64,000 nt of DNA, taken from IMG/VR virus record IMGVR_UViG_3300047160_006886, positions 32,001-96,000 of that record; one strand, 5' to 3'. A model generated the notes under the pieces. That model had not been told where the DNA came from, did not search any database, and saw nothing but the letters and a program-made list of their open reading frames with translations. Positions 3,032 through 45,431 of this stretch are shown one piece after another. The stretch comes from a virus. Position 1 is the first letter of the stretch. Each line of letters opens with the position of its first letter. The position numbers were made by a program, and so were the translations under genes.

Positions 3032-3241
3032 TCAAAATCTCTCTCCGTGACCACCGCCATTGAAGTGCTCGAATCTCTGGCAACAATCGAAACACACGTA
3101 CTTTCCGCAGCCCCCGCACCGGGCGCACAGGTCGCAGACAGATACTCCGCAGTGAACACATTCATGATTCAGCGCCATCCAGTTTGGCGTCTCATCGCCG
3201 CCATCGTTTCCGCAGGCCGGGCACGGTTCTACTGATGTCAT
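3032..3241 (-). CDS. Cys-rich small Zn-binding protein
   Basis: 69 aa with five CxxC pairs. Confidence 0.5.
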   Translation of the reverse strand: MTSVEPCPACGNDGGDETPNWMALNHECVHCGVSVCDLCARCGGCGKYVCFDCCQRFEHFNGGGHGERF

Positions 3242-3255
3242 GACGCTGTTCCAAT

Positions 3256-3600
3256 TCAACTGAGACTTAGGTGCCATCGACCGTGCGTCAAGTAACCATG
3301 CCAGTAATACGTTCCGTGCCCGGCGCCGATAGAGTCTCTTATCGTCAGCGTGCCGTCCGCCTCTTCCGTGAACGTGTGAGGCGGGCTTTGAACGTGATGC
3401 ATCGACCTCGCTTCTCCATGCACATCCGGGTCTCGGGCTATCGGTAACAAGAAGAATACACACGGGTTTCCGTTGCTCGCGCAATTGACCGGACCGCAGT
3501 AATCTCCGGCGTCCTTCAAGATCGAATAAGGGTCTTGACCTCCCACGATTGGCAAACGCCGACCCTGCATTTCCGTTGGCATGATTAGAACCCTTCCCAA
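3256..3600 (-). CDS. Conserved small phage protein (DUF6527-like)
   Basis: TLTIRDSI...WHGYLTHGRW C-terminal motif. Confidence 0.5.
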   Translation of the reverse strand: MGRVLIMPTEMQGRRLPIVGGQDPYSILKDAGDYCGPVNCASNGNPCVFFLLPIARDPDVHGEARSMHHVQSPPHTFTEEADGTLTIRDSIGAGHGTYYWHGYLTHGRWHLSLS

Positions 3601-3881
3601 TATCGCTTACGTGCCCGATAGAGCCGTGTGTCTCGCCGAACTTGAGCCGCCCAAAACCTCTTTCTTTTTGCCTGCATCTTGCGGCATGTCCTGCAAGTTA
3701 CTACCAGACTGCCTGGCGGTTTGTGTCGCGTGTTGACGGTCAACCGTGGCTCGATAGCGGGCTCGGCATACCGAAGGAACTCTGGATACTGCCGTCGCAT
3801 CTCTGCTAGCGGCACTTCTGCTCGAAGGTCGTGTTCGGTGCGTGTTTGATGTTGTACTGGTCGGATAAAGACATATCTCAC
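3585..3881 (-). CDS. Hypothetical protein
   Basis: ORF packed in the operon; one CxxC. Confidence 0.45.
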   Translation of the reverse strand: MRYVFIRPVQHQTRTEHDLRAEVPLAEMRRQYPEFLRYAEPAIEPRLTVNTRHKPPGSLVVTCRTCRKMQAKRKRFWAAQVRRDTRLYRARKRYWEGF

Positions 3882-3887
3882 TCGCTT

Positions 3888-4106
3888 TCATTCAAGGACC
3901 GGCAGCCCAGCCTTGCGCCGCTCGGCGTTCCATTCAAGCACATCGCGCTGAAGCGCCGCTACTAGGCCGAGCGCCTCCTCCATCGCCACGATCTTCTGGA
4001 CTACGCTGTGGGAATTGTTCGCGTTCATCAGGTTGACCAGTTGGTCGAGGAGGTCCTGGCCCCTGGCCTCGGCCATCTCGTCAGTGATCTTGAACTTCGC
4101 GATCAT
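3888..4106 (-). CDS. Hypothetical helical protein
   Basis: Tightly coupled ORF. Confidence 0.55.
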   Translation of the reverse strand: MIAKFKITDEMAEARGQDLLDQLVNLMNANNSHSVVQKIVAMEEALGLVAALQRDVLEWNAERRKAGLPVLE

Positions 4107-4108
4107 GA

Positions 4109-4747
4109 CTACGATCCCGTGATGGTGTAAGTGACGGCCAGCGTCCCGCCGCTGGACACGTTCAAGGTTGAGAAAGTGTCGTGGCAGAGCAGGAAGTTCT
4201 TGCCGCCGGCGGTGATCCGCAGGCCGACCTCCTGGTAAGCGCGGTTGGCCCCGGCGGTGACTGTCCCGGTGACGGTGAACGATCCCGACGAGCCAGAGCC
4301 GGAGTAGGCGTTGACGACTCCTGCGATGGTCTCGGTGGAGGTGCCCAGGGCGACGTCGAGGACGGTCGCGGCCGTGCCTGTAGTGCCCGCTTCGATGGTC
4401 ACCGCCGAAGTAGTCGTCGGCGTCGCTCCGCCTATCGAGGCGGTCGACGAATCCTCGGCGGTGATGGTCTCGGCGGTCACCAGAATGTTGGCCTGGATGA
4501 ACTGCATGAACTGCTTGGTCGCCAGGTCGCCCCTGATCTCCCGAGTCTCCCTGACCGGCATGCAGGTACAGGCCTTCCCAAGTGGGGCATGGATCGGGCA
4601 GGGATCACGAACCTCCAGCTTCAGGTCGATCCGGATGTGACCCCGCTGGACATCCGGGGCCGGAGCTGCTGCTGCTACAGGACCCGTCACCAAGGCCGGG
4701 GCTTCCTTCACTTCATCGTCGTCGTCGCTGCTACTGCTCATCATCAT
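4109..4747 (-). CDS. Probable virion structural protein (tail-collar/fibre N-terminal-like)
   Basis: GTTGTAATVLDVAL...EVGL...FSTLNV..GTLAVTYTI pattern. Confidence 0.55.
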   Translation of the reverse strand: MMMSSSSDDDDEVKEAPALVTGPVAAAAPAPDVQRGHIRIDLKLEVRDPCPIHAPLGKACTCMPVRETREIRGDLATKQFMQFIQANILVTAETITAEDSSTASIGGATPTTTSAVTIEAGTTGTAATVLDVALGTSTETIAGVVNAYSGSGSSGSFTVTGTVTAGANRAYQEVGLRITAGGKNFLLCHDTFSTLNVSSGGTLAVTYTITGS

Positions 4748-5579
4748 CGTTCGTCTCCGTAGTTATGGTCGCAGTGGACCGACTCCCGTCCGCATGGCGG
4801 AAGCTGATAGTCTTCTCCCTGGGTCGGACCAGAGTTGCCAGCTCCTCGGCGACATTGGCAATGGCCTCGATAGATGGCTGTAATTCACCGACGATGACTC
4901 CCGCCAGCTCCTCGACCGGCATATTCACTGTCACCGGCGACGACTGGCTATTGACGACCGGTGGTTGCTGGGGCCGAGCCAGGTTAGCGACGAGGGAAGT
5001 AAGCTGCGATAGCTGCTGGTCAAGACTCCGGACCAGACCACCCAGGGTCCCGGCCATCGCCGATAGGACTTCCGCCATCGCTGTCTGCGATTCCTTCAGA
5101 GCATTGGCGACCGGAGTCATATCGACGAGAACCTCCACCGGCACCTCACTCGCCATGATGGTCGGAGCGAACTTATTGGTGATAGGCGTGGGTTCGATGC
5201 GGTTCTCGATAGTCACTGGAGTCGGCTGGAGCGATGGCAGGTTCAACTGCGGCGAAAACTCATTCCGGATCGGTGTTGGCTCAATCCGGTTTTCGATGGT
5301 CACTGGGGTAGGCTGAACCTGCGGGGAAAAAGTCGGCGAGAACTCATTCCGGACTTCCGGACTTTGGAGCCGGTTCTCGATAGTGATGGGTGTCGGAGCT
5401 ACTTCGTTGATGACCGCCGGCGTCTCGACCGAATTGTGCACATGCACGTCCGGTGGCGTCGCAGCCGGAATTTCATTATGGACATAGGGCGGAAGCTGTC
5501 GCTGGGTGAGTCGCTTGTTCAGGACCCGGCCCATCGCCTTGATGGCGACTTGCATGTCATCGCTGAGGACACGACTCAT
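4731..5579 (-). CDS. Pro-rich repeat protein, probably head-associated
   Basis: Imperfect PTP(V/I)TIENR / (V/I)RNEFSP repeats; lies downstream of the portal. Confidence 0.6.
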   Translation of the reverse strand: MSRVLSDDMQVAIKAMGRVLNKRLTQRQLPPYVHNEIPAATPPDVHVHNSVETPAVINEVAPTPITIENRLQSPEVRNEFSPTFSPQVQPTPVTIENRIEPTPIRNEFSPQLNLPSLQPTPVTIENRIEPTPITNKFAPTIMASEVPVEVLVDMTPVANALKESQTAMAEVLSAMAGTLGGLVRSLDQQLSQLTSLVANLARPQQPPVVNSQSSPVTVNMPVEELAGVIVGELQPSIEAIANVAEELATLVRPREKTISFRHADGSRSTATITTETNDDDEQ

Positions 5580-6304
5580 GATGAAGCCGACCTCCTTCCG
5601 CCACGATAGACTTTCTTCGGGTAGGTCAGAGAGGGAAAGTTGTTCTGCAGTCGCTTCGGCTTGGCGTGGCTCAACCGTTCGCCGCGGGGGCGCATCGAAC
5701 CGGGGATCACCTTGCTCCGTTGAATGTTCATCAGTCAGACCCTCTCAACATAGTTGATAAGAGACATCCAGGCGGCACGGTCAAAGTGGAGTCCCGACAG
5801 AATCATCCACCGCTCCACCTCTTTCAGCCAGGCATTGAAGAGCACGCACTTGGCGATGTCGGCCATCAGAGCCGCTTCTCCACTTCTTGAAGAAACAAAA
5901 TCGCCCCACGGACCATCTTCCGCAAGTTGCTGATCTTGTCGCCGTTGGGGTCTTCGGGCAGTTCCAGGAATAGACCGGAGCGGCTGATGCCCTCGGCGGT
6001 CGCCCTGGACATCAGGAGGTGCAGAGCCGCCGATGACCCCTTTTCAGCCATCAGAGCACCCATCTGCCGGCCTAGTTCCTCCATGCTCTCCTCAGTCACG
6101 ATCGCGGATCTCCTCCGTGCTCCAACTCCTTGTCGACCTGCCACTCGCAGTTGGCCCACCTCGCTACGTTGGTCCTCTGCAACTCGAAGCAAGCGATACA
6201 CATCGGGGCCGGGTAGATCTCAAAGCCATTGCGGAAGATGGTCATGTCCGGGAAGGTCTCGGCCATCATGCCGCAGCGAAGGCAGGGTTCAGCAGGGCGG
6301 ATGG

Positions 6305-31449: not shown

Positions 31450-31609
31450 GTGGTTGTCCTTTCTCCAACAATTCCGACCTGAAGATGGGCACCTCTCGCG
31501 GTGCCTCGATCCCCAGCCGGACCTTGCCTCTGTCTATCTCCCTGACCGTGACGACCACGTCATCACCGATCACGATTGACTCTCCCAACTTCCTGACGAT
31601 TACAAGCAT
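31382..31609 (-). CDS. csrA: Carbon storage regulator (RNA-binding translational regulator)
   Basis: MLVIVRKLGESIVIGDDV...KVRLGIEAPREVPIFRSEL. Confidence 0.92.
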   Translation of the reverse strand: MLVIVRKLGESIVIGDDVVVTVREIDRGKVRLGIEAPREVPIFRSELLEKGQPHADGDEASRKQQQAVPESEIDG

Positions 31610-35700: not shown

Positions 35701-35788
35701 TAGAACCTAAACCAACCTGCTCGATCATCTTGGAGCCATCCGAGAGGCAGCCCGTCCCAAGTCGGGAAGCAATGGTGAGGGGGTTCTA
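35701..35788 (+). ncRNA. Twister self-cleaving ribozyme (type P1)
   Basis: P1 tagaacc/ggttcta; L1 UAA and GAGGG; P2 acca/tggt; P3 ctgc/gcag; P4 cccg/cggg with loop UCCCAAGU; T1 CCC/GGG and T2 AC/GU. Confidence 0.85.
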
Positions 35789-36105: not shown

Positions 36106-36377
36106 CGAACTAACAGCGGGGTCTAGGATCGATCATCCGAACACCGGACTCTCCAGACCGGCCCGACCCCGCTTCTTTCTTTCTGGAGTCTCAACCCTTT
36201 ACTGGAGAAAGCCATGTCCGAGAGAGTTCACCTGGTTCCCAAGTCCATGATCGAGCAGTGGAAGGCTGAGCTGCGACGCGAGAAGCAGGTCCAGCCCGCT
36301 ATTCCCCTCGACCGGGCTATCCGGGCGGCGGCGAGCCTGCGAGCACGATTGACCCTGCGGAGAAAGGTGGTGATGGC

Positions 36378-41215: not shown

Positions 41216-41341
41216 CGACTTCTCTTCCACCCCTCCTCGGCCTGCCCAGGGTCGGCGAGGGGGACAAGAGCAGCCGACCGATGGCCACCGAGTCTCGCTT
41301 CGAGGCCGGGGCCGCTGCGGTGCTCGCAAGGAGAACGAACG

Positions 41342-41641: not shown

Positions 41642-41778
41642 ACGACTCCTCTTACCGCCCTCCGTAGCCCACCCACCGTGTCGCGGTCAACGGCCAAGCG
41701 TGAGGTGGAGCGGAGGGTGGACCGAGCAGCCGTTTGCTGTCTCCTGCCGAGGGTCAGTGATCTCTCACATGGAGATAC

Positions 41779-42132: not shown

Positions 42133-42294
42133 ACCAGTCCTTCTTCCACCGCTCCGGGAACTGGCGGGCGGCTATGGTCCGGACGCGAACTCTCTGAGAT
42201 GGCGAAACCCGGCCAGACGCCATGTTCCGAAAATCCCTACCAGCCCGGAGCGGGACAAGAACGATACTAAACCCAACAAGAGAAAGGAAACCAA

Positions 42295-42528
42295 ATGAGC
42301 AAGGAAAGAGACAAACACATTGACGACTTGAACGATCTGGTCAGCTATCTTCAAAAGGAGGGATTGGACGCCGACGACCTGGAGGGAGCCGTCTGCGACG
42401 AGAAGAAAAATGAAGCGGATTTGCTTATCGAAGAAGGGCTTATGAGTGTATGCGAATACCTGATTGAAAACGGTTGGCATTTAGAAGCCATCAGAAACGA
42501 AGCAAGACAAGAAAAGGCCCAGGAGTGA
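42295..42528 (+). CDS. Acidic hypothetical protein (low GC)
   Basis: AAGGA RBS. Confidence 0.6.
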   Translation: MSKERDKHIDDLNDLVSYLQKEGLDADDLEGAVCDEKKNEADLLIEEGLMSVCEYLIENGWHLEAIRNEARQEKAQE

Positions 42529-42583
42529 CACGGCACTGTCATCCGTGAGAGGACCAGCCGCTCTTCAGGCTGGACTGTAAGGA
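42529..42583 (+). ncRNA. Unassigned two-hairpin RNA motif, copy 1
   Basis: Three pairings covary with copy 2. Confidence 0.65.
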
Positions 42584-42590
42584 AAGTGAA

Positions 42591-42821
42591 ATGAAAATCC
42601 TATTAGAGCCGCTGTTAGACTGGATCACCAGCAACGTCTATGACAGCGGGCACGGTTTGTTGGGTCCGCCCAGTTGGGTGATCGATGCCGAGACCATCTT
42701 GGACAAGCTAAGGGAGCTGGCCGGTATATCCAAACACGAAATGACTGTGGCTTATGACCAGGCAAGAATCCGAGTACATGGAAGAAACGTTGATGGGGGA
42801 ACCTACCTCGACGAGAACTGA
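42591..42821 (+). CDS. Hypothetical protein
   Basis: Lies between the two RNA motif copies. Confidence 0.6.
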   Translation: MKILLEPLLDWITSNVYDSGHGLLGPPSWVIDAETILDKLRELAGISKHEMTVAYDQARIRVHGRNVDGGTYLDEN

Positions 42822-42876
42822 CTGGGCAGCGTCATCCCAGACACGAGCGAGCGGTGTTCAGCTCGCACAGTCAGGA
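42822..42876 (+). ncRNA. Unassigned two-hairpin RNA motif, copy 2
   Basis: Same spacing as copy 1, with compensatory changes. Confidence 0.65.
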
Positions 42877-42884
42877 GTTCAATC

Positions 42885-45431
42885 ATGAAAGCCAAAGACA
42901 TCAAGCAAGGCCACCACTACGAAACGAAGATCGGCGGCAAGCTGACAGTCGTAAAAGTAGATCGGATCAACGAGGAGCGAGAGCCAACGCTGGGCACCAA
43001 CCGCTCCCGGAAGACCGGGAAGATGACTTTTGAGGTCACCAACCTCTCAACCGGCCGCAAGACCACGTTCCGGTCGGCGGCGAAGTTCCGTCGGGAGGCC
43101 ACCCCCGGCAGCCTCGTCATGGAGCATGAAAACAAACGCATCAAGAGATTGCAGGAGCAAGTTGCCGAGAAGGTCATCCGCCCGACCATCGACAAGCTAG
43201 TCGAGCAAGGAGTCCTGCCGAAGCCCACCGGCGAGGTAAAGATCGAGTACCCCAATGTCCCTTTCGCCGAGCGGGAGGCGAGACCCCCAGCGAAATCGTC
43301 GAGCGACACTCCAGGCTCCACGGCACGCTCCAGCCGCTCGACCCCACCTTCGTCCGGAACTCAGTCGACAGCAAGGACAACCGCTGCTGGTGTGAACATT
43401 GCTCAGCCGCACGGCAGCCGAGAGAATCCCGGCAGCAGCGACGAGATCGAGAGCACCGAGAACAGCTCCAGCGAGGCTACCGAATCCTCGCCGGCGAGGC
43501 CGCTGACCCACCAGCAGGTCAAGGCGATATTCGACGCGGTGGACAAGACCGAGTTGCTCAAGAAGGTCCGCTCGACAAACGATCCGACTCCCCTCTCGCT
43601 TCAGCAGTGCCAGGAGGTTGTGATGAGCGAACAGGAGGAGGTGCTCAAGATCATGAGAGAGACCAGGGGCAAGCCGGAGTTGCGAGACAAGAAGCTGCGG
43701 GAGCTGGCCAACCGACACAACCGTGGTGGAAGGAGATCGCAGACCAACACGCTGAGTGCTCCCGACGAAGCCTCAAGCCACCACACAGGACTGACTTCCG
43801 AAACATCTCCTTTGACCCTTCCCTCGTCACCGGCAGATGCAGATGTCGAGCCTGCCGGGAAGGAGTCAACAACGGCTACCGACCCAGCATCACAGCAACC
43901 CCAACTGACCCCGACGAGGGAGAAGGATGCCCCGGTAGTTGAGAACCTGAAGGAGACGCTCCAGCGGGCAATCAACCAGGTGACCGAGACGATTCCTGAA
44001 GCCGCCGGTCTCCAGGGCGATCAGCCGCAGGCATTCATCGACCTGACTACTAAGATCAGCGATGGCAAGCGGGTCGTGGTGCTGTGTGGCTTCGCCGGCA
44101 CGGGCAAGACCGTGCTGCTGACTCGGATCGCCCGCTGGGCCAAGCGGCAGAAGTACGATGTGAAAATCGCCGCCCCGACCCACAAAGCAGCATCGGTCAT
44201 TTCTCAGAAACTCGCTTCGTCCGGACCCGGTGGAACCGACATCGAGGTCCGCACGATTCATTCGATGCTCGGCTTGAGGCTGGAGCCGGATTACGAGTCC
44301 GACTCCGGCGGTCACATCCTGACTGCCCAGGACAGCAAGTCCAAGGTGAAGACCGGCCTGGTGATTTGTGACGAAGCGTCGATGGTCGGTGAAGTCCTCA
44401 AAGACCACATCGAGAAGTCGAGCAGCGACATCATCTGGGTATTCGTAGGGGATTTAGCTCAGCTCCCGCCGGTCGGCGAGAGCATCAGCGAACTCCTGGA
44501 CGAGCCGGATGCGGTGCTGGAGAACGTGCTCCGCCAGGCCCAGGGATCGGAGATCCTGAACCTGGCGACCCGCATCCGCAAGGGTGACATGAGCATGAAG
44601 CACAAGAAGGGCAAGGACGTATTCGAGGTCGCCGATGCCGAGCAGCTGTTCCAGGCCGCTCTGACCAAGTTCCGGGACCCGGCCTACCAGAAAGACCCGT
44701 CGTTCGCACGGATGCTGGTCTTCAAGAACGCAAGGCGGCAGGCCATCAACGCCCGGATGCGAGACCTGCTGGTCGGCTCCCAGCAGCCTTATGAGCCGGG
44801 CGAGTGGCTGGTCATGTACCAGCAGTTCGCTCCGGAGAAGTCGCGGCTCAATCTCATGGCCGAGGAGGCGAAGAAGTTTCCGAAGGGCGACCGCAGACGC
44901 GGCCCGGCCTGGAAGCGGTTCTTCGACTACCAGCGGCAGCTCGGCGAGTCGGTGTCAATGCTCCATGTCAGCGAGGAGGTCCGCGTGGTAGCGGTCTCCG
45001 AACGGGATGTCGATATCGACGACTACACATTCGGCGTCTGGAGCCTGACCGTCCGGACCAAGGACGACCAGGAATACGTCCTGCCGGTACTCAAGGACGA
45101 GGAGCGGGAGCGTCACTCGAAGGCCCTGGCGACCATCATGGCCAAGGCCCAGGAATATCGAGCCGAGCGGGATGAGTGCCCGAAGGGGTCGCCTGACTGG
45201 ATTGATTGGGACGAGAAGCGGAAGAAGGAGTGGGGCCGCTATTTCGGCATGGAGTCCACGTTCGCTCAAGTGGACTACTGCTACTGCATGACCACCCACA
45301 AGAGCCAGGGGTCCACGTTCGATCATGTGTTCGTCGATGTCCCCGACTTGATGTCGAGCGGCGGCATGCAACAACGAATCCTTTACACGTCGGTTACACG
45401 ACCGGCGAAAAGCCTGACCTTTTACAAGTGA
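42885..45431 (+). CDS. Dda/RecD-like SF1B helicase with long N-terminal extension
   Basis: GFAGTGKT, AAPTHKAA, TIHS, CDEASM, GDLAQLPPV, THKSQGSTF, YTSVTR. Confidence 0.9.
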   Translation: MKAKDIKQGHHYETKIGGKLTVVKVDRINEEREPTLGTNRSRKTGKMTFEVTNLSTGRKTTFRSAAKFRREATPGSLVMEHENKRIKRLQEQVAEKVIRPTIDKLVEQGVLPKPTGEVKIEYPNVPFAEREARPPAKSSSDTPGSTARSSRSTPPSSGTQSTARTTAAGVNIAQPHGSRENPGSSDEIESTENSSSEATESSPARPLTHQQVKAIFDAVDKTELLKKVRSTNDPTPLSLQQCQEVVMSEQEEVLKIMRETRGKPELRDKKLRELANRHNRGGRRSQTNTLSAPDEASSHHTGLTSETSPLTLPSSPADADVEPAGKESTTATDPASQQPQLTPTREKDAPVVENLKETLQRAINQVTETIPEAAGLQGDQPQAFIDLTTKISDGKRVVVLCGFAGTGKTVLLTRIARWAKRQKYDVKIAAPTHKAASVISQKLASSGPGGTDIEVRTIHSMLGLRLEPDYESDSGGHILTAQDSKSKVKTGLVICDEASMVGEVLKDHIEKSSSDIIWVFVGDLAQLPPVGESISELLDEPDAVLENVLRQAQGSEILNLATRIRKGDMSMKHKKGKDVFEVADAEQLFQAALTKFRDPAYQKDPSFARMLVFKNARRQAINARMRDLLVGSQQPYEPGEWLVMYQQFAPEKSRLNLMAEEAKKFPKGDRRRGPAWKRFFDYQRQLGESVSMLHVSEEVRVVAVSERDVDIDDYTFGVWSLTVRTKDDQEYVLPVLKDEERERHSKALATIMAKAQEYRAERDECPKGSPDWIDWDEKRKKEWGRYFGMESTFAQVDYCYCMTTHKSQGSTFDHVFVDVPDLMSSGGMQQRILYTSVTRPAKSLTFYK

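Follow-up and report, generated by a model that had tools for sequence, protein, structure and literature searches.

A two-copy 55-nt motif with covarying hairpin and pseudoknot stems upstream of a small gene and a helicase gene in an uncultured phage

The genome of an uncultured phage contains two copies of a 55-nt motif in which a small hairpin is followed by a compact pseudoknot, and the stems of this fold are preserved between the copies by compensatory base changes. The motif is a real and selected structured element that, as far as could be searched, is restricted to one lineage. Judged from its sequences (n = 2), it is almost certainly a functional RNA signal. We rate it as a structured cis element in phage mRNA and give little credence to the idea that it is something categorically new. 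The window that was analysed is the 64 kb stretch corresponding to bases 32001–96000 of a 111,990 bp IMG/VR virus record, which is ∼93% complete.

Architecture and covariation of the two copies

Copy 1 (42529–42583) and copy 2 (42822–42876) are both located on the + strand with a spacing of 293 nt. Each starts with a 5 bp hairpin P1 (42529–42533 with 42543–42547 in copy 1 and 42822–42826 with 42836–42840 in copy 2) that is capped by a conserved 9-nt loop, CAnnGUCAU (42534–42542 and 42827–42835). The parts that follow are arranged in the order S1(5′), GA, S2(5′), G, S1(3′), UCA, S2(3′), which is that of an H-type pseudoknot. Its stems are S1 of 4 bp (42548–42551 with 42561–42564 in copy 1 and 42841–42844 with 42854–42857 in copy 2) and S2 of 6 bp (42554–42559 with 42568–42573 and 42847–42852 with 42861–42866). 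They are connected by the loops L1 (GA; 42552–42553 and 42845–42846), L2 (G; 42560 and 42853) and L3 (UCA; 42565–42567 and 42858–42860). Two nucleotides thus have to cross the 6 bp stem and three the 4 bp stem, a geometry that we take to be sterically feasible by the usual loop-length rules. P1 is placed directly against S1 without a linker, so that the three helices could stack.

The tail of each copy (42574–42583 and 42867–42876) includes the Shine–Dalgarno (SD) sequence of the next gene. The 3′ end is AGGA in both cases and is about 7 nt away from the next ATG (42591 and 42885, respectively), while at the other end an upstream TGA directly adjoins each copy (42526–42528 and 42819–42821). 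The whole spacer from stop codon to SD is consequently taken up by the motif at both sites. The link between the knot and AGGA is 6 nt long and conserved in both copies, and the distance from the knot to the ATG is ∼17 nt. A preliminary description of this stretch had already listed the two copies with their equal length of 55 nt and their letters, the TGA directly on the 5′ side and the ending in the SD of the next gene, all of which is borne out by reading the sequence.

The two copies differ at 20 of their 55 positions, and 16 of these differences belong to eight base pairs that are changed on both sides (two of five in P1, two of four in S1 and four of six in S2). All 15 pairs are Watson–Crick pairs in both copies. 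Seven are identical, none is broken and none is changed on one side only. The remaining four differences lie outside the pairs, where 21 of the 25 unpaired bases are identical. This is in agreement with the preliminary description, which had considered both stems and the linker/loop pairing (agag/ctct versus acac/gtgt) to be compensatory and the unpaired stretches CAnnGUCAU, GA, UCA and ACnGUnAGGA to be conserved.

Several controls were applied to this pattern. The observed values were attained by one out of 500 column shuffles, and 20 random substitutions left all 15 pairs intact in 61 of 2,000,000 trials. When the 3′ partners were slid by 1–3 columns, only 20–43% of the cells remained paired and zero or one compensatory pair was left. 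When all helices of 3 bp or more that both copies can form were listed blindly and ranked by covariation, precisely P1, S1 and S2 came out on top, and the structure is therefore not cherry-picked. Since the stems drift while the loops stay fixed, selection is likely to act on both the shape and a specific surface; such a combination of conserved loops and variable stems is the hallmark of a surface that is recognized specifically. The covariation evidence comes from two sequences only, and for that number the evidence for selection is unusually clean. No G–U pairs are present in the fold, and as a consequence the pairing alone fixes neither the strand nor the choice between RNA and single-stranded DNA. 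What speaks for mRNA rather than single-stranded DNA is that, on the coding strand, the motif runs precisely from the stop codon to the SD.

Nested folding was performed with 40–45 nt of flanking sequence. S2 is formed in essentially the whole ensemble (probability of being unpaired 0.00–0.01) and P1 is in competition with flanking sequence. The loop strand of S1 remains free (probability of being unpaired 0.92–0.99) and is thus available for the pseudoknot. The folding energy is unremarkable, with a z-score of about −1, and on the sequences at hand the case for the motif stands on covariation and not on stability. The SD is found outside every conserved helix and its predicted accessibility is unequal between the copies; with the SD unsequestered and the copies unlike in this respect, no simple on/off switch is visible. 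Three further pairings were considered and rejected. A helix that would close the motif by joining the stop-codon region to the tail has 7 bp in copy 2 and is broken in copy 1. The UGAC at the stop codon and the loop sequence GUCA are complementary in both copies, yet their helix would have just 4 bp and would compete with P1. The conserved GUCAUCC could form an antisense duplex with a GGAUGAC in the leader of the operon, but this heptamer occurs 27 times in the genome and the match is therefore unspecific.

Genomic setting and search for relatives

Between ∼35.8 and 48 kb every plausible gene in the list of open reading frames is on the + strand, and neither a σ70-like promoter nor a terminator-like site on the + strand was found inside this segment. 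With all genes on one strand and no such internal site, one long transcript is plausible, and both copies plausibly sit within a single long early/replication operon. The local order on the + strand is ORF1, copy 1, ORF2, copy 2 and a Dda-like SF1 helicase gene.

ORF1 (42295–42528, +) is an orphan small gene of 77 aa with the SD gaaaggaa upstream and GC contents of 0.59, 0.26 and 0.56 at the three codon positions. It has no Pfam or PHROG family above threshold and no usable Atlas match. ORF2 (42591–42821, +; 76 aa), between the copies, is a real gene and belongs to a conserved family of small proteins of 70–90 aa, for which 28 representative clusters were obtained at E ≤ 1e-3; one homolog, P0031, is 55% identical. 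The helicase gene (42885–45431, +; 848 aa) lies 3′ of copy 2. Its product contains the Pfam domains AAA_30, AAA_19, UvrD_C_2 and PIF1 and matches PHROG 325 (Dda-like helicase) at 1e-89, and 22 relatives with 54–63% identity are present in the protein database. An N-terminal extension of ∼375 aa (42885–44000), made up of a small domain at the N-terminus and a long linker rich in Ser, Thr and Pro, is absent from homologs of 474–486 aa and matches no Pfam family. The third-position GC is 0.56 in ORF1 and 0.64 in ORF2 versus 0.75–0.87 in the surrounding genes, which hints at a different origin or at weak expression of the two small genes.

A homolog of ORF2 with 51% identity is found at locus L423 (2975–3210), where a 784-aa UvrD-type SF1 helicase (3213–5567) follows after 2 nt and the SD of the helicase lies within the small gene. 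To judge from this layout, the two genes are arranged so that their translation would be tightly coupled. The pair of a small protein followed by an SF1 helicase thus occurs in two unrelated phages, and ORF2 probably encodes a helicase accessory protein. Given the 2-nt gap at which the L423 pair abuts, copy 2 lies at a gene boundary whose counterpart in another phage is tightly coupled, and the motif presumably occupies a place that determines how much of each partner protein is translated relative to the other.

The operon contains other candidate RNA structures. At its head, a twister-P1-like RNA (35704–35785, +) scores 42.2 bits with RF03160 versus a gathering threshold of 67.2 (E = 1e-7 in a 1 kb search). 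The blocks UAA, GCC, GUCCCAAG and GAGGG align and one stem has a longer insert; from this alignment a divergent twister ribozyme is likely. An int-alpA-like RNA with a U-rich 3′ end (36116–36186, +) reaches 32.4 bits versus a gathering threshold of 35.8. A second family of spacer structures is found on the + strand directly after the stops of three preceding genes (∼41216–41272, ∼41642–41733 and ∼42133–42262). In its members a pyrimidine-rich 5′ strand (CUUCUCUUCC-like) is paired to a GGAC..GAG strand and variable inserts are enclosed, with fold z-scores of −2.3 to −3.5. In the first of them the SD of the following gene is an alternative pairing partner for the 5′ strand, which makes a translational-coupling switch possible.

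The motif itself belongs to no known RNA family. With the gathering thresholds of Rfam 15 (4227 models, among them every curated ribozyme and riboswitch) no match was obtained in the window, and at E ≤ 10 the sole match in 42400–43000 is mir-146 (16.1 bits, − strand), which we regard as noise. The preliminary description had recognized no riboswitch or ribozyme consensus and had tied the novelty of the motif to a comparison with Rfam. This comparison yields no family, and the claim of novelty holds for Rfam 15.

A covariance model (R1) was built from the two copies, which score 81.1 bits (copy 1) and 81.2 bits (copy 2). Over the 112 kb phage record, and over the window with filters turned off, R1 retrieves only these two. 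No copy was found at ∼195 helicase-related loci (80 from IMG/VR, about 80 from metagenomes and 35 from genomes), a set that leaves out the contigs of the 54–63% helicase relatives and of ORF2 homologs such as P0031. This includes a related groundwater phage contig, L121, which is the closest relative searched (59% identical helicase), as well as L122; the upstream spacers in L121 contain unrelated hairpins. The ORF2-homolog locus L423 also lacks a copy. Three fixed-length IUPAC scans of IMG/VR returned matches in which, for every one of those listed, the stems are absent (pairing at best 10/15 in one check and 7/10 in another), and blastn against cultured phages gave short chance matches only. 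A loose descriptor allowing any hairpin and any H-type pseudoknot produced hundreds of matches and was useless. Of the search of phage and metagenome databases that the preliminary description had called for, the recovery of the two copies stands, while no covarying homolog emerged from the loci searched. So far, and as far as could be searched, the motif is confined to one phage lineage.

In L121 the same AAAGGAGCAAUCA(A)UG block, a start-associated sequence, opens two consecutive genes, one of them the helicase gene (5880–5900 and 6100–6120). A similar AGGAGUUCAAUCAUG is present where the helicase gene of the window begins.

Candidate roles of the motif

We tentatively favour a role in the translation of the next cistron, with the motif as a cis-acting mRNA element that is recognized by a trans factor or by the ribosome. 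The element would be a folded segment of the polycistronic early/replication mRNA and would provide a sequence-specific and shape-specific recognition site that controls initiation at ORF2 and at the helicase. The likeliest route would be a single trans-acting factor that binds both copies as a translational operator. Alternatively, the motif may dock the 30S subunit or may pass terminating ribosomes over the untranslated gap of 62–63 nt. We infer that the motif acts as RNA on the + strand, that control is exerted at translation and that a trans factor exists. The translational reading is supported by the motif spanning the full spacer and by its constant 6-nt link to the SD. Translational operators, among them a pseudoknot, are known to act on replication genes of phages, as in the cases of T4 gp32, gp43 and RegA (PMC3014915). 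Among the phage proteins examined there is no candidate for the trans factor: RegA is absent from the record, and no RNA-binding family was found in ORF1, ORF2 or the N-terminus of the helicase. The phage encodes a CsrA homolog (∼31460–31609, −; PF02599, 77.8 bits, E = 7e-23). CsrA fits poorly, since the sole GGA common to both copies is that of the SD.

The upstream stop codon is adjoined as exactly as the downstream SD, and for that reason a role at the 3′ end, in processing or as punctuation fits equally well. As a processing or stability element, which we consider somewhat unlikely, the motif would be the place where a ribonuclease of the host or of the phage cuts the early transcript, or a protective 3′ or 5′ cap for a cistron. 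Structured repeats directly follow five consecutive gene ends (three of the second family and two copies of the motif), both families start at the stop codon, and the twister-like RNA heads the operon, so that cutting of the RNA probably has a part in how the operon is expressed. About two helical turns make up a classical RNase III substrate, whereas none of the helices here exceeds 6 bp and coaxial stacking of all three would reach only ∼15 bp; moreover, RNase III is not encoded by the phage and a plain cap would need no 21 conserved unpaired bases. The mRNA could also be cut between cistrons by the motif itself, as a new class of small self-cleaving ribozyme. A length of 55 nt, a pseudoknot and numerous unpaired bases that do not vary are what one expects of a small ribozyme, the twister-P1-like RNA is only ∼7 kb upstream in the same operon, and known ribozyme classes cluster with one another and with phage genes (PMC4604425). 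This reading is nevertheless very unlikely: no Rfam ribozyme model matches, the pistol topology fails, and ribozyme classes are normally widespread, whereas no further example is present among the listed matches of the IMG/VR pattern scans or at the ∼195 helicase-related loci. Taken more broadly, there is a small chance that the motif is the founding example of a new autonomous fold, either a self-cleaving ribozyme or another catalytic or ligand-binding pseudoknot. If so, the early mRNA would be cut or gated one cistron at a time by the joint action of the motif, the twister-like RNA and the second family of repeats.

Action at the DNA level, as a fold of single-stranded DNA involved in recombination at a cassette boundary, in priming or in the initiation of replication near the helicase gene, is very doubtful. 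The pairs are all Watson–Crick, which would allow the fold in DNA and on either strand, and the low third-position GC of ORF1 and ORF2 could reflect acquired units that are each followed by a copy. The preliminary description had included a cassette-boundary site among its options, beside a cis-regulatory, a processing and a self-cleaving RNA. The cassette-boundary option is disfavoured, as the 112 kb record encodes no tyrosine recombinase (PF00589), the ends are not complementary and form no attC-type end-to-end palindrome or core site, and the ORF2 homolog in L423 lacks such flanks; a motif that does not travel with ORF2 counts against a cassette boundary. The pseudoknot with its conserved loops and the stop-to-SD register on the coding strand are also more natural for mRNA. 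A recoding signal, with read-through of UGA that would add 21 codons to ORF1 and join ORF2 and the helicase into one in-frame fusion, is hardly credible. UGA-C stands at the start of both copies and is said, after Poole et al. 1995, to be a weak stop context in Escherichia coli; 21 open codons follow both UGAs, and ORF2 and the helicase are in one frame with no stop in between. Such open stretches are unremarkable, however, with a probability of ∼0.4 each by chance in a rough estimate, and the differences at codon positions 1, 2 and 3 (2, 8 and 10, respectively) are not coding-like. The pseudoknot begins 23 nt after the U of UGA, which is farther away than in known stimulators. ORF2 and the helicase are each equipped with an SD and an ATG, and this phage uses TGA as an ordinary stop codon, the helicase ending at the same point as its homologs. 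For a small-molecule riboswitch, in which the H-type pseudoknot would control the adjacent ribosome-binding site, one can point to the compact knot with conserved loop bases beside the SD. We judge it extremely improbable, given that no Rfam riboswitch model matches, that the SD is in no conserved helix and that the genes downstream, for a small helicase-associated protein and a helicase, are neither metabolic nor transport genes. It is unlikely that the motif has some other role at the RNA level or, less likely given the signal of selection, no function.

Structured mRNA elements of phages are poorly charted. In a review from 2010, the pseudoknot of T4 gene 32 was perhaps the sole viral pseudoknot then shown to act in translational autoregulation (PMC3014915). 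The present motif stands before a replication helicase gene and the conserved small gene that accompanies it, and its function, once worked out, would reveal how expression is programmed along a single long early transcript of an uncultured phage. Its size of 55 nt also suits use as a part, be it an insulator, an operator or a ribozyme. With two copies in one phage lineage, a general importance is unproven.

Comparison with known systems

A tRNA-like element can be set aside, as ARAGORN finds none. Targets of CsrA/RsmA carry two or more GGA motifs, as a rule with one in the loop of a hairpin and another that overlaps the SD. Copy 2 contains a single GGA, that of the SD, and the hairpin loops of both copies are free of GGA, so that a CsrA site was rejected. 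An integron attC site is an imperfect palindrome in which R″/L″ pair with L′/R′, with a GTTRRRY core and the tyrosine recombinase IntI as its partner. The motif resembles attC in being an element at a gene boundary with structure conserved more than sequence; its ends are unpaired in both copies, GTTRRRY occurs in neither and PF00589 is missing from the record, and attC was rejected as well. The start-associated sequences of Cluster K mycobacteriophages are reportedly short linear motifs that include the ribosome-binding site and occur in many copies, upstream of several genes. In contrast, the motif described here is present in two copies and is conserved mainly in structure.

Minimal H-type pseudoknots beside the SD are found in the preQ1-I, SAM-II and guanidine-III riboswitches. 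The motif differs from these in that its SD is outside the conserved helices and its gene context is non-metabolic. With the twister, pistol and hatchet ribozymes it shares a size of ∼50–60 nt, a pseudoknot, invariant unpaired bases and an association with phages; unlike them, it has no Rfam match and no wide distribution was found. Hammerhead and HDV-like topologies were ruled out by inspection of the sequence together with the lack of an Rfam match. Pistol consists of the stems P1, P2 and P3 and a pseudoknot between the P1 loop and the P2–P3 junction (PMC4604425). In the motif no shared helix connects the P1 loop to the tail or to the stretch between the hairpin and S2, and there is no P2 enclosing the second hairpin, which led us to reject this class.

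The RNase III sites between the early genes of T7 are long irregular hairpins of ∼20 bp located between a stop codon and the next SD, with covarying stems and conserved internal bases. As in T7, repeated structured spacers occur here in a polycistronic early transcript. The stems of the motif are only 4–6 bp long and pseudoknotted, and instead of a single irregular hairpin of about two turns there are separate helices of 5, 4 and 6 bp.

The pseudoknot of T4 gene 32 forms the 5′ terminus of a long A/U-rich leader that is otherwise unstructured, and this tract is bound cooperatively by the single-stranded DNA-binding product of the gene itself. In our motif the knot is instead followed by 6 nt up to the SD, with ∼17 nt between knot and ATG in place of a long A/U-rich tract, and the products encoded downstream are a 76-aa protein and a helicase. 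The motif also has an additional 5′ hairpin, is present in two copies and has no sequence similarity to the gene 32 pseudoknot. What it has in common with gene 32 of T4 and T2 is the setting, that is, the mRNA of a replication module with an H-type pseudoknot or operator upstream of the ribosome-binding site (PMC3014915). The T4 operators, namely those for gp32 and gp43 and the targets of RegA, exert their control at the initiation of translation (PMC3014915), and the same level of control is what we propose for the motif.
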